Virus record (IMG/VR): IMGVR_UViG_2565956762_000002
Span: 1 to 35,833 of that record
Strand: one strand, 5' to 3'
DNA: 35,833 nt
Source of the DNA: a virus
Taxonomy: Duplodnaviria; Heunggongvirae; Uroviricota; Caudoviricetes
In this document: positions 32,259-35,833 of the stretch, in pieces
Numbering within the stretch: the first letter of the stretch is position 1
How the letters are laid out: each line of letters starts with the position of its first letter
Made by a program: the position numbers and the translations under genes
Notes under the pieces: model-generated
What the model was told of the DNA's origin: nothing
Databases searched by the model: none
Seen by the model: only the letters and a program-made list of their open reading frames with translations

Positions 32259-32740
32259 TGATGGTGCTGGGATTATACGTGTTTATGCTGCGCACCGTGC
32301 CGTATCAGGAGCTGCAGTATCAGCGCAGCTGGCGACATGCGGCTAACAGCCGGGTTAACCGACGCCCGTCAACGCAGTTTCTGGGACCGGATAACGACAT
32401 GCTGACGCTTTCTGGCGTTCTTATGCCGGAAATAACAGGCGGCAGGCTGTCGTTGCTGGCACTGGAGCAGATGGCAGAACAGGGGAAAGCATGGCCCCTG
32501 ATTGAAGGCAGCGGCACGATTTACGGCATGTATGTGATTGAGGGACTGAATCAGACTAAAACGGAGTTTTTCCGCGACGGTATGCCGCGCAGGATTGAGT
32601 TCACCCTGTCGCTAAAACGCGTGGATGAATCCCTGTCCGATATGTTCGGTGATCTCAGTGCGCAACTGAATAATCTGCAGGGAACGGCAACATCTGCCTT
32701 AAGCGATATCAGTAAAACGGTGGGAGGGCTGCTGTCGTGA
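32255..32740 (+). CDS. U: Tail protein U
   Basis: 161 aa overlapping the T stop. Confidence 0.85.
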   Translation: MMMVLGLYVFMLRTVPYQELQYQRSWRHAANSRVNRRPSTQFLGPDNDMLTLSGVLMPEITGGRLSLLALEQMAEQGKAWPLIEGSGTIYGMYVIEGLNQTKTEFFRDGMPRRIEFTLSLKRVDESLSDMFGDLSAQLNNLQGTATSALSDISKTVGGLLS

Positions 32741-33837
32741 ATTTCAGCTCTGAACTGCTTAACAAAGGCAACAAAACTCCGGCATTCAGCATCAGTATTG
32801 AAGGCAGGGATATCACCACTGTGCTGGACAACCGCCTGATGGGGCTGACGCTGACGGATAACCGGGGATTTGAAGCGGACCAGCTTGATCTGGAGCTGGA
32901 CGACGCCGATGGAAAAATCGTGCTGCCGCGCCGTGGTGCGGTCATTACGCTGGCGCTGGGCTGGAAGGGGCAGCCGCTTTTCCCGAAAGGGGCATTCACG
33001 GTGGACGAGATTGAACACACTGGCGCACCGGACCGCCTGACTATCCGGGCGCGAAGTGCTGATTTTCGGGAAACCCTGAATACCCGCCGTGAAAAATCGT
33101 GGCATAACACCACCATCGGGGAAGTGGTGAAGGAAATAGCCGCGCGGCACAAGCTGAAGATGGCACTGGGTAAAGAGCTGTCGGATAAGCCCGTGGAGCA
33201 TATAGACCAGACTAATGAGAGTGACGGCAGTTTTCTGATGCGACTGGCGCGACAGTACGGTGCCATCGCGTCGGTGAAAAATGGCAATCTGTTATTCATC
33301 CGGCAGGGGCAGGGCAAAAGCGCCACTGGTAAACCACTGCCAGTGATCACTATCACACGCAAGGACGGCGACAGTCACCGCTTTACCCTGGCAGATCGCG
33401 GAGCCTACACGGGCGTAATTGCCAGCTGGTTGCATACCCGTGAACCTGCGAAGAAAGAAAGCACCACGGTGAAGCGTAAGCGCAGAACTAAGAAGCAGAA
33501 GAAAGAGCCTGAAGCGAAGCAGGGCGATTACCTGGTGGGTACGGATGAAAACGTGCTGGTACTTAATCGCACTTATGCCAACCGGAGCAACGCCGAACGA
33601 GCGGCGAAAATGCAGTGGGAACGCCTGCAACGCGGCGTTGCGTCATTCTCGCTACAACTGGCGGAAGGGCGGGCAGATCTCTACACGGAAATGCCAGTGA
33701 AAGTCAGTGGCTTTAAACAGCAGATAGATGATGCGGAATGGACTATTACCACCCTGACGCATACTGTCAGCCCGGATAACGGTTTTACGACCAGTCTGGA
33801 GCTTGAAGTGAAGATTGATGATTTCGAAATGGAATGA
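32737..33837 (+). CDS. D: Tail protein D (late control D)
   Basis: 366 aa overlapping the U stop. Confidence 0.9.
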   Translation: MNFSSELLNKGNKTPAFSISIEGRDITTVLDNRLMGLTLTDNRGFEADQLDLELDDADGKIVLPRRGAVITLALGWKGQPLFPKGAFTVDEIEHTGAPDRLTIRARSADFRETLNTRREKSWHNTTIGEVVKEIAARHKLKMALGKELSDKPVEHIDQTNESDGSFLMRLARQYGAIASVKNGNLLFIRQGQGKSATGKPLPVITITRKDGDSHRFTLADRGAYTGVIASWLHTREPAKKESTTVKRKRRTKKQKKEPEAKQGDYLVGTDENVLVLNRTYANRSNAERAAKMQWERLQRGVASFSLQLAEGRADLYTEMPVKVSGFKQQIDDAEWTITTLTHTVSPDNGFTTSLELEVKIDDFEME

Positions 33838-33927
33838 TTCTTCGCAATGGAGAACTTTTAAGTTTTCAAAATGGAATAATGCGGTATCATTATTGTGAAT
33901 TTAGCAAAAATGGGGAGAACTCGAAAA

Positions 33928-34146
33928 ATGATGATTTGCCCACTGTGTGGAAGTGCCGCCCATACTCGCAGCAGTTTTCAGGTATCTTCATTGACCAAAG
34001 AGCGTTACAACCAGTGCCAGAACATTAACTGCAGCCATACTTTTGTTACCCATGAAACTTTTGTTCGTTCGATTGCAACGCCAAAAGAGTCAAATCCGGT
34101 TCAGCCGCATCCTCATAAATTTAAACAGGTGGGTTTGCCGATTTAA
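33928..34146 (+). CDS. ogr: Ogr/Delta zinc-finger late-gene activator
   Basis: MMICPLCGSAAHTRSS ... ERYNQCQNINCSHTF is the Ogr C2C2 zinc finger; start placed at 33928 rather than the upstream in-frame ATGs. Confidence 0.85.
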   Translation: MMICPLCGSAAHTRSSFQVSSLTKERYNQCQNINCSHTFVTHETFVRSIATPKESNPVQPHPHKFKQVGLPI

Positions 34147-34209
34147 ATGGCGACATAACTACATGATTTAAAACTATACTTTTCTATAAGTTGAGGTTAA
34201 ATTAACAAT

Positions 34210-34388
34210 GCCTGACGTTAGCGGGGATTTATCCCCACTCCGTAGATATGTAGTTTGTCGCTTTGCGACTGCGGACCGATTACCTGATTGCCATGTAATC
34301 GGACGCCGACTTGTTAAGCTTTCTGGGCTAACTGGTTGTTATTTTTTATTTAGTTAGGGCCATGCGCTTGCGCTAAGAGACGTCAGGT
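34210..34388 (+). ncRNA. Candidate structured non-coding RNA upstream of the RT (retron msr/msd-like or DRT-type)
   Basis: 8-bp inverted repeat CCTGACGT (34211-34218) / ACGTCAGG (34380-34387) flanks about 160 nt with hairpins at 34223-34236, 34257-34269 and 34276-34302 (8-bp stem CCGATTAC/GTAATCGG). Confidence 0.25.
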
Positions 34389-34407
34389 ATCTATGGAGGA
34401 ACAAGTT

Positions 34408-34581
34408 ATGGATACAAACGAACTTGGCTTAGTTAAGGCGCGTGTTGAACTGATCACCGCTATGCTCAAATGCGCAACCGCGTTTGTTGGCTTAGTTGGT
34501 GCGGTTTACGCCGTTCTTAACATGGCCTTCAACTACAACAATTTAACTCATGACAATAGAAGTTCAAAGGTGGGAAGATAA
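34408..34581 (+). CDS. Small single-TM protein (57 aa), possible RT-associated effector
   Basis: ATG at 34408 preceded by GGAGG at 8 nt; hydrophobic segment ATAFVGLVGAVYAVLNMAF; the 3' end overlaps the RT start. Confidence 0.4.
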   Translation: MDTNELGLVKARVELITAMLKCATAFVGLVGAVYAVLNMAFNYNNLTHDNRSSKVGR

Positions 34582-35323
34582 ATTTGAGATTAAGCCCGGG
34601 GTTTGGGTTTATGTCCCAAGCGTTGAGGCACGTAAAGTCGGAGGGAAGATACTTCAGGCTGTCAGAAACAAGTGGATTCCGCCACTCTATTTTTACCATC
34701 TAAGAACTGGTGGGCATCTTAAAGCTGCCAGATTACACTTAAAAAGTGATTTTTTTGCCGTTGTTGATATTAAACATTTTTTTCAGTCAACGAGCCGTAG
34801 TCGTATCACCCGTGATCTAAAGAGCTACTTCACCTATTCTCAAGCGCGGGAAATCTCAACATTTTCAACTGTAAGAAACTTGTCCCATAGTCCACATAAG
34901 CATGTCCTCCCTTTTGGTTTTGTTCAATCTCCAATACTTGCAACCCTCTGCTTAGATAAAAGTTATTTTGGTAGCTTACTACGCCGATTGAACAAACATC
35001 ATGATCTCAAGCTAAGTGTGTTTATGGATGATGTGATCATCTCGTCAAACGATTTGGCCCAATTACAAGCGGCTTACGACGAAGCACTAGTGGCAATGCG
35101 TAAATCTGGTTATCAAGCCAACATGAGTAAAACTCAGGCACCATCGTCAAAGATTAGCGTGTTTAATTTAACTTTGAGTAAGGGAGTTATGAAAGTCACA
35201 TCTCAGAAAATGAGTGACTTCCTGATTGATTTCTATTCAAGCAATTATGAGCCGCACAGAATAGGGGTCAAAAACTACGTCGAAGCTGTTAATCCAGGGC
35301 AAGCGAAACTCTTTAAGTTGTAA
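34550..35323 (+). CDS. Compact reverse transcriptase (257 aa)
   Basis: RT motifs in order: RKVGGKIL, VVDIKHFFQS, PFGFVQSPILATLCL, FMDDVIISS (YxDD-like), then SKT and KVTS. Confidence 0.75.
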   Translation: MTIEVQRWEDKFEIKPGVWVYVPSVEARKVGGKILQAVRNKWIPPLYFYHLRTGGHLKAARLHLKSDFFAVVDIKHFFQSTSRSRITRDLKSYFTYSQAREISTFSTVRNLSHSPHKHVLPFGFVQSPILATLCLDKSYFGSLLRRLNKHHDLKLSVFMDDVIISSNDLAQLQAAYDEALVAMRKSGYQANMSKTQAPSSKISVFNLTLSKGVMKVTSQKMSDFLIDFYSSNYEPHRIGVKNYVEAVNPGQAKLFKL

Positions 35324-35397
35324 TTGCGATCGCATGTAGTAGCAACTGGGCTTGACTGAATGCCTGCCGCCATTTTGCCGCCACTACCAAAGAAAAA

Positions 35398-35421
35398 GGG
35401 GCTACGCTTTCACGTAGCCCC
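35398..35421. terminator. Hairpin terminator downstream of ssrA (also terminates the RT transcript)
   Basis: GGGGCTACG-CTTTCA-CGTAGCCCC flanked by T-runs on both strands. Confidence 0.6.
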
Positions 35422-35431
35422 TTGATTTATT

Positions 35432-35794
35432 TGGTGGAGCTGGCGGGAGTTGAACCCGCGTCCGAAATTCCTACATCCTCGGTACTACATGCTTAGTCAG
35501 TCTTTACATTCGCTTGCCAGCTGCGGACGGACACGCCACTAACAAACTAGCCTGATTAAGTTTTAACGCTTCAACCCCAGGCAGGGCTTCCACGCGATCT
35601 CTTTTGGGTTTGACCTCTCTTGATCCCCGTCCTAAGAGCGGAGGCTAGGGAGAGAGGGCTCTAAGCAGGTTATTAAGCTGCTAAAGCGTAGTTTTCGTCG
35701 TTTGCGACTATTTTTTGCGGCTTTTTACGAGGCCAACCGCCCCTCGGCATGCACCTTGGGTTTCGCAAATCCCGTCGAATCCAGAATCAGCCCC
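35432..35794 (-). ncRNA. ssrA: tmRNA (SsrA), 363 nt
   Basis: Minus strand reads GGGGCTGATTCTGGATTCGACGGG ... GGACGCGGGTTCAACTCCCGCCAGCTCCACCA, the enterobacterial ssrA 5' and 3' ends as recalled; length 363 nt. Confidence 0.95.
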
Positions 35795-35833
35795 AATGTG
35801 TAACGGCAAGTATACCAGATTTATGAGCGCCAT

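Follow-up and report, generated by a model that had tools for sequence, protein, structure and literature searches.

We analyzed the IMG/VR virus record IMGVR_UViG_2565956762_000002 (Duplodnaviria; Heunggongvirae; Uroviricota; Caudoviricetes) over its full length of 35,833 nucleotides, here called the window. Near its right end, the gene for an Ogr zinc-finger activator ends at 34146 (Pfam Ogr_Delta, 6.7e-22) and is followed by a gap of 246 nt, a small open reading frame (ORF) that specifies a small protein (SP), and the gene for a reverse transcriptase (RT). We find that a conserved, strand-specific structured RNA, attached to this family of RTs, lies in the gap and continues into the SP gene. 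This RNA is real and strongly supported. Its elements and the two genes that follow are listed below, with SD for the Shine-Dalgarno sequence and SL for stem-loop; a1 and a2 are the inverted repeats that flank the noncoding RNA (ncRNA) of retrons.

34208-34219, plus strand: 5′ arm of a long-range helix, a2-like; pairs with 34379-34390 and covaries
34219-34221, plus strand: U-A-G motif right after the 5′ arm; A34220 and G34221 are invariant in 53 sequences
34223-34236, plus strand: SL1, GGGGA-UUUA-UCCCC; a hairpin at the UAGG motif is predicted in nearly all loci, with varying stems and loops
34238-34248, plus strand: strand X, anti-Shine-Dalgarno, CUCCGUAGAUA; complementary to 34388-34398
34257-34269, plus strand: SL2, GUCRC-NNN-GYGAY, the most conserved hairpin; 94.7% of cells paired
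34270-34346, plus strand: hypervariable, stably folded segment with hairpins 34276-34302 and 34307-34338; candidate msd (template) stem-loops
34350-34364, plus strand: motif U, UUAGUU-AGGG-CCAUG; pairs with the SP codons for N-M-A-F-N-Y
34360-34378, plus strand: invariant GCGC-loop-GCGC hairpin, then U-ARG; its four G-C pairs are kept in 51 to 53 of 53 sequences, and the loop is variable
34379-34390, plus strand: 3′ arm of the long-range helix, a1-like; pairs with 34208-34219
34388-34399, plus strand: strand Y with the SD of SP, GGAGG (34395-34399); overlaps the a1-like arm by 3 nt
34408-34581, plus strand: SP, a 57-aa small protein with a hydrophobic core and a ...LNMAFNY motif; overlaps the RT start by 32 nt
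34429-34439, plus strand: motif V, UUAGUUAAGGC, a direct repeat of U within SP (Leu-Val codons); also complementary to N
34519-34536, plus strand: motif N, AAC AUG GCC UUC AAC UAC (N-M-A-F-N-Y); common partner of U and V
34550-35323, plus strand: compact 257-aa RT with catalytic FMDD (DD codons 35027-35032); Pfam RVT_1, 4.4e-21

Loci of homologous RTs were taken from species-representative genomes of gamma-, beta-, and alphaproteobacteria and from some metagenome-assembled genomes of other phyla (80 loci; 81 including the window). A further 52 loci from IMG/VR viral contigs, none of them used to build the covariance model, formed a viral test set. The model, R1, was built from a plain MAFFT alignment of 53 loci (A2). 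It matches 72 of the 81 genome loci and 49 of the 52 viral loci; every match is on the same strand as the RT, with ~130-150 nt between it and the RT start downstream. The window has a single match (34205-34422, 78 bits, E 3.5e-16). The loci share one order of elements upstream of SP: the 5′ arm, UAG, SL1, strand X, SL2, the hypervariable segment, motif U (UURGUU...CAUG), the GCGC-loop-GCGC hairpin with U-ARG, the 3′ arm, and finally the SD and the SP start. R1 scores only 14-30 bits at the alphaproteobacterial loci L062-L078, where the C-terminus of SP reads ...GEVTNY, which suggests that these loci have a diverged form of the RNA.

Covariation was assessed on alignment A2. In the helix between the 5′ and 3′ arms, 84.9% of cells are paired, and eight of nine pairs show compensatory double changes, such as U-A in 29 sequences with C-G in 19, or G-C in 41 with A-U in 10. 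SL2 shows changes of the same kind (A-U to G-C, and U-A to C-G). Over the whole tested structure, covariation is 0.283, compared with 0.190 ± 0.009 for shuffled alignments (none of 500 reach the observed value) and at most 0.133 when the pairing partners are slid. Furthermore, RNAalifold independently recovers the a2/a1 helix, SL2, and the GCGC hairpin. The hypervariable segment ranges from 36 to 86 nt and has no sequence conservation; its mean folding z score is −2.0 (48 loci). An Rfam search of 33800-35833 (E ≤ 1) returned no retron or other family in the region, with only tmRNA-related hits and one small RNA.

An initial annotation of this DNA had drawn attention to an 8-bp inverted repeat and to a hairpin at 34276-34302. 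Both are present. The repeat is longer than had been noted, with 11-nt arms at 34208-34218 and 34380-34390 that are 91% complementary, and in the minimum free energy (MFE) fold 34208-34219 pairs with 34379-34390 over 12 bp including G-U. The hairpin has arms at 34276-34286 and 34292-34302, and forms an 8-bp stem in the MFE fold. The annotation had also been cautious about the repeat, and rightly so. Some 3×10^4 position pairs, each matching with a probability of 4^-8, give an expectation of ~0.4 perfect 8-bp repeats by chance in ~250 nt. There are also 30 inverted repeats of at least 7 nt within the same 500 nt. One alternative is that the repeat and hairpins are accidents of an A+T-rich intergenic spacer. 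We regard this as having almost no chance of being correct. Such accidents are ruled out by the covariation, by the independent detection with a covariance model, and by the fold of 34147-34410, whose stability exceeds that of dinucleotide shuffles (z = −3.5; equalled by 1 shuffle in 200). It is the covariation across homologous loci that raises the repeat above chance. Folding and covariance analysis had been proposed as the check on the structured region; conserved structure with covariation is what emerged, and the outcome of no conserved structure did not arise.

The limits first drawn for the structured region, 34147-34392, need revision. Structure is indeed present, but the conserved element starts at ~34205-34208 and continues beyond 34392: it takes in the SD (34395-34399) and pairs with SP sequence as far as 34536. 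The first 61 nt, 34147-34207, are an A+T-rich spacer with a weak promoter at most, represented by the following candidate.

34198-34203, plus strand: candidate −10 hexamer, TAAATT, weak; inferred, with a 4/6 match in the window

In most homologous loci, a TGnTAnnnT-type extended −10 element precedes the 5′ arm by 6-9 nt, and a TTGACA-like hexamer is often present ~17 nt further upstream. The region had also been described as noncoding and upstream of the RT. It does lie upstream, but a conserved 57-aa ORF is placed between RNA and RT, and the ribosome-binding site and 3′ codons of this ORF are part of the RNA structure. A 49-aa ORF within the RNA (34208-34357) was considered and rejected as a gene.

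In almost all loci, an ORF of 40-60 codons runs up to or into the RT start; its product has a hydrophobic core and the C-terminal motif ...L(N/S)(M/V)(A/T)FNY. An ORF with the NY motif is found in 68 of the 81 loci, counting the window. A strong SD and an ATG precede the small ORF; in the window these are GGAGG at 34395-34399 and ATG 34408, which is also where RefSeq starts the hypothetical protein WP_000380485.1. The first ATG (34393) was rejected as the start, since homologues start at the second ATG behind GGAGG, as does the RefSeq entry. The RT start codon has no recognizable SD and lies 32 nt inside the SP ORF (34550-34581). In most loci, 4-37 nt separate the Asn codon of the NY motif from the RT start downstream. 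This arrangement suggests translational coupling, or RT translation controlled by the helices that U and V form with N. Three entries of the RT family (P0036, P0019, and P0113) have 302-309 aa, ~45-50 residues more than the rest; their start calls may run back over the small ORF and so hide it.

Long-range pairings that reach into SP were examined by an alignment-free test of duplex energy. For each locus, the energy between its own segments was compared with that between segments of different loci (2000 permutations) and with that for a shuffled or reversed partner from the same locus. Energies are in kcal/mol, and the final figure is the number of permutations that reached the observed value.

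a2:a1: own −16.3 (−16.5 in the shuffle-control subset); other loci −10.5; shuffled −7.9; 0 of 2000
X:SD: own −13.3 (−13.4 in the shuffle-control subset); other loci −8.6; shuffled −8.1; 0 of 2000
U:N: own −14.5; other loci −10.8; shuffled −8.4; 0 of 2000
V:N: own −16.3; other loci −11.6; shuffled −10.8; 0 of 2000

All four pairings beat same-locus shuffled partners by at least 14 standard deviations. In the window, X:SD joins 34238-34248 to 34388-34398 and covers the GGAG of the SD. At least 26 of 44 loci have their SD inside the X:Y duplex, a lower bound because the start-codon heuristic failed in some loci. Compensatory change in U:N is illustrated by GGCCAUG:CAUGGCC in the window and GGCUAUG:CAUAGUC in locus L001, whose protein reads NIVPNY. 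As X:SD, U:N, and V:N pass both the swap and the shuffle controls, the SP ORF is embedded in the structured RNA. The SP gene thus lies inside a structured RNA, an arrangement like that in the "hybrid RNA" of type VI retrons. A different pairing of the SD, with GCCUUC at 34526-34531 in the MFE fold, was discounted, as it is absent as a conserved pairing in other loci. UUAGUU occurs three times in the window (34350-34355, 34429-34434, and 34492-34497, the third copy inside SP), and the longer TTGGCTTAGTT occurs twice (34424-34434 and 34487-34497).

The RT belongs to a large family. A word-indexed search finds 72 homologues and a profile search 596, all of ~250-265 aa and none specifically named. 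An exhaustive profile search of 1.84 billion representatives gives 282 clusters at 50% identity (E ≤ 1e-30). The AlphaFold2 model of the RT has a pLDDT of 95, and its top 18 Foldseek matches in the PDB are all retron RTs (Ec86, Ec83, Eco7/Ec78, Eco8, and Eco2; TM 0.67-0.77). The best match is Ec86 (E 1.7e-15, TM 0.73). Sequence-profile matches in the PDB are weak and again led by retron RTs (4.6e-13 to 1e-8). G2L4, DRT9, and group II intron RTs rank below the retron RTs in the fold search.

DRT2 and DRT9 are phage defense systems with a stand-alone RT and a conserved structured ncRNA immediately upstream. This layout is shared with our locus, and it raises the alternative that the RNA serves as template or scaffold for a non-retron defense RT like those of DRT2 or DRT9, one that makes concatemeric or homopolymeric cDNA and no branched multicopy single-stranded DNA (msDNA). 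DRT9 structures do appear among the fold hits, at ranks 20-21, and direct repeats (U, V, and the UUAGUU at 34492) could in principle allow template jumping. We nevertheless consider this alternative improbable. The best matches of the window RT, in sequence as in fold, are retron RTs and not RTs of the UG or DRT groups. Its matches to DRT and UG profiles are weak (the best in PADLOC is UG33 at 6e-9, and NCBIfam Drt3a gives 0.0028), and no UG2 or UG28 match is found among the PADLOC hits shown for the RT. The terminal inverted repeat with an adjacent conserved G is a retron feature. To our knowledge, an embedded, translationally occluded small ORF occurs in type VI retrons and in neither DRT2 nor DRT9.

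Retrons themselves provide two points of comparison. As in the classical Retron-Eco1 (Ec86), the RNA of the window lies upstream of the RT on the same strand and has a terminal inverted repeat, a conserved G-containing motif 3′ of the 5′ arm, and conserved hairpins that resemble an msr, after which comes a variable, msd-like hairpin. The motif reads GACGUUAGCG in the window, and the msr of Ec86 has CCCUUAGCG at the corresponding position. The RT fold is nearest to that of Ec86. Unlike classical retrons, the locus has an effector ORF between ncRNA and RT that is structurally embedded in the RNA, and it has no separate large effector. Its RT is also ~60 residues shorter, with altered signature motifs. 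The likeness to retron a1/a2 repeats suggested by the initial annotation therefore holds as architecture (a covarying helix, UAG, stem-loops, a variable hairpin, and an adjacent RT), but the RT falls outside every modeled retron type.

Type VI retrons have the gene order ncRNA-SP-helix-turn-helix (HTH)-RT. Retron-Vpa2 combines its msr-msd with the coding sequence of SP in a single "hybrid RNA", and SP is a toxin that is kept untranslated (10.1101/2025.10.22.683967). Its msDNA appears only after phage triggers and is required to derepress SP (10.1101/2025.10.22.683967). The ncRNA of Retron-Sen3 sequesters the ribosome-binding site of SP (10.64898/2026.04.27.721009). An HTH is lacking in about 22% of the type VI entries that have been published. 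The module in the window resembles these systems in several ways. Its gene order starts with an ncRNA, followed by a small protein, with the RT last; the SP ORF lies within a structured transcript with its ribosome-binding site base-paired; the RNA carries inverted repeats of the a1/a2 kind as well as direct repeats; and SP has a hydrophobic C-terminal core (...AFNY... at residues 40-43, with ...WFNF... at 42-45 in Vpa2). With the Vpa2 SP (Table S3 sequence), it shares only this F-N-aromatic motif in the same position. Both kinds of system are also prophage-borne, type VI retrons as in KS5.

KS5 is a P2-like Burkholderia phage whose gp45-gp44 (PMC3091744) was our type VI positive control. KS5 gp44 reaches 260 bits on RT_VI, and gp45 matches HTH_VI with 117 bits. 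R1 finds nothing at this canonical type VI locus. The gp44 RT has 339 aa, is 24% identical to the window RT, and carries NAEAH and KVTG. An 84-codon ORF upstream of the KS5 HTH gene, with a basic N-terminus and a hydrophobic C-terminus, could be the KS5 SP. The KS5 retron (L082; GU911303, 35144-36443, minus strand) adjoins the portal gene, and P2-like phages therefore carry two retron-like modules, at different genome ends.

There are also differences from type VI. The window has no Cro/C1-type HTH gene, nor is there room for one, with the SP stop at 34581 overlapping the RT start at 34550. No recurrent neighbor gene, HTH, or other partner was found near the RT by all-against-all ORF clustering within 1.8 kb at 80 loci. 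The window RT is short (257 aa against the 339 aa of KS5 gp44), has a low RT_VI score (62 against 260 bits), and fails the type VI clade test (PADLOC RT_VI; Mestre clade 3). The a1/a2-like helix of the window closes an ncRNA domain upstream of SP, whereas the Vpa2 repeats close the RNA after SP. Five RT-family accessions were checked, and none is in the type VI tree of the Sen3 paper (10.64898/2026.04.27.721009). The locus thus fails two defining tests of type VI (RT clade and HTH) and one of classical retrons (RT motifs). On a comparison with the published descriptions of Vpa2, Eco12, and Sen3, the module is apparently a new, HTH-less relative of type VI retrons.

Taken together, these data lead us to favor, with some reservation, a reading in which a retron-like "hybrid" RNA has this region as its 5′ domain and belongs to an HTH-less defense module of ncRNA, SP, and compact RT. 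The structured RNA is probably also the template of the RT, and we infer that the module carries out reverse transcription and that SP is toxic. The UAG region holds a candidate priming or branching G. This putative role is suggested by where the branching G lies in classical retrons. In most loci, the invariant UAG comes right after a purine, which is usually G.

A plausible mechanism can be outlined. The RT would bind conserved hairpins, namely SL2, which is the candidate RT-recognition element, and/or the GCGC hairpin. When a2:a1 forms, the RT would prime at the G beside the 5′ arm and copy the GCGC-U-variable hairpin region into single-stranded DNA, as retron RTs do. At rest, X:SD pairing would keep SP untranslated, and a switch to a2:a1 would expose its SD. 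X:SD and a2:a1 are incompatible in a nested fold, share 3 nt, and are almost isoenergetic, so the priming fold and the release of the SP ribosome-binding site would be coupled. Once cDNA is made and RNase H has removed the template, motif U would be lost, which would free or re-pair the SP 3′ codons and could thereby fix the "on" state. SP, which is small and hydrophobic, might then kill or arrest the infected cell (abortive infection). The logic would be the same as that published for type VI Retron-Vpa2, minus the HTH co-repressor.

Several observations weigh against this interpretation. The first group concerns the RNA. In MAFFT columns, X:SD is paired in only 49.6%, a count blurred by register shifts, which is why the alignment-free swap and shuffle tests were used. 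The helices a2:a1, X:SD, and U:N mutually cross and cannot all form in one nested fold. Since they cross, and since a1 and the SD strand share 3 nt, they must represent alternative states or else pseudoknots. When 34205-34549 is folded under constraint, the energies differ little (−118.2 kcal/mol with a2:a1, −115.8 with X:SD, and −113.6 with U:N). The invariant UAG is predicted to lie inside the SL1 stem, and the sequence does not single out a priming G. In addition, a scan with a strict sigma-70 consensus found no plus-strand promoter in the window.

The second group concerns the proteins. PADLOC ranks RT_VI first for the window RT at only 62.3 bits; the best of 27 RT-family members reaches E 1.9e-24 on RT_VI, with RT_I-B close behind. 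NCBIfam retron models stay far below their cut-offs (for example, retron_St85_RT at 48.7 bits against a cut-off of 235). The retron RT signatures NAxxH and VTG are replaced by AAxxH and V-F-N. The consensus of the RT family is GGHVAAxxxH, with A59 and H63 invariant and the N absent, and F205 and N206 are invariant in V-F-N. For SP, close locus pairs show 30/18/39 differences at codon positions 1/2/3; of the 72 codons that differ, 31 do so synonymously (31:41). This pattern gives modest support for coding. The most conserved SP residues, a Leu-Val near the N-terminus and the Asn-Tyr near the C-terminus, are encoded by the covarying helix strands UAGUU:AACUA. AAY-UAY encodes Asn-Tyr only, and protein and RNA constraints are inseparable there. 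Part of the conservation of the SP "protein" may thus be RNA constraint.

The main rival sees in the RNA nothing but a cis-regulatory leader that switches translation of the SP-RT operon and is not reverse transcribed, with the RT either copying another template or simply binding this RNA. Among the functional pairings, the one with the best support is indeed the occlusion of the SP ribosome-binding site, and the competing U, V, and N repeats resemble a classical alternative-pairing switch. The RT lacks canonical retron motifs, and type VI retrons have no detectable msDNA at rest. However, a leader would need neither a hypervariable yet stable hairpin bracketed by a covarying terminal helix nor an adjacent invariant UAG. 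Strict co-inheritance of the RNA with a retron-fold RT in more than 120 loci also argues against it, as does the equivalent Vpa2 RNA, which is template and regulator both. We thus rate a pure leader as unlikely, albeit the most serious competitor to a retron-like hybrid RNA.

A more specific form of the hybrid-RNA interpretation is offered tentatively, as a possibility that we do not yet favor. The module might represent an unclassified two-gene retron lineage without HTH, in which one RNA is RT template, primer, translational repressor, and toxin mRNA. Its mutually exclusive helices (a2:a1 versus anti-SD:SD, and U:N versus V:N) would form a single priming/toxin switch, and the L-V and N-Y of the toxin would be dictated by the helices.

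If the retron-like interpretation is correct, the locus would exemplify a widespread minimal defense module, with an RT family of 282 clusters at 50% identity. Members of this family are frequent on the P2-like prophages that Klebsiella, E. coli, and Salmonella Typhi carry, and its PADLOC and NCBIfam matches are far below family level. Regulation is apparently by RNA structure alone, which would make this a simple system for the coupling of reverse transcription to toxin translation, the question left open by two conflicting type VI studies (Vpa2 and Sen3). An RT of 257 aa whose cognate RNA is defined may also interest developers of genome editing with retrons. Finally, SP clearly illustrates how constraints on a protein and on RNA structure can overlap within a small ORF.

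The module of ncRNA, SP, and RT is cargo at the right end of a P2-type prophage, between ogr and an attR at ssrA. The window end is the right arm of this prophage, with gpD at 32737-33837. By mechanical calling, the Ogr ORF starts at GTG 33895 (83 aa); the RefSeq start in the equivalent E. coli gene corresponds to the ATG at window position 33928 (72 aa). Two features follow the RT directly.

35396-35423: bidirectional terminator hairpin that separates the RT from the tmRNA gene
35432-35794, minus strand: complete transfer-messenger RNA (tmRNA) gene, ssrA; 296 bits

The 1.3-kb module region is 100% identical in Klebsiella pneumoniae prophage records, and these records stop at window position 35429. 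The attR must be at the tmRNA 3′ end, at ~35400-35431, 1 kb downstream of the structured RNA. The prophage has integrated at the ssrA 3′ end, as have phages of the Fels-2/SopE-phi type.

This setting bears on a last alternative, that the gap is phage housekeeping sequence. The region does lie between ogr (33928-34146) and the prophage end, and the initial annotation had allowed for an ogr terminator or the attR here. Both are excluded: a terminator scan found no such site after ogr (34147-34210), and the prophage junction is at the tmRNA gene. Moreover, the RNA accompanies the RT in dozens of otherwise unrelated loci, including loci without ogr or shared neighbors. Parts of the 1331-bp query match 747 E. 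coli genomes, but the whole module is present in only 28 of 5426, which also speaks against housekeeping. This explanation can be set aside with near certainty.

In the listed E. coli genomes, the module region is 99.5-99.7% identical, and the genes that RefSeq annotates there are ogr, one for a hypothetical protein of 57 aa, one for an "RT domain-containing protein", ssrA, and smpB. The RT cluster includes S. Typhi CT18 entries, and the module is thus present in Typhi prophages. The RT accession WP_000151541.1 is reportedly named in a 2015 paper on a LAMP (loop-mediated isothermal amplification) assay for Salmonella Typhi (PMC4409374). Many viral copies in IMG/VR sit at the ends of 33-37 kb contigs.

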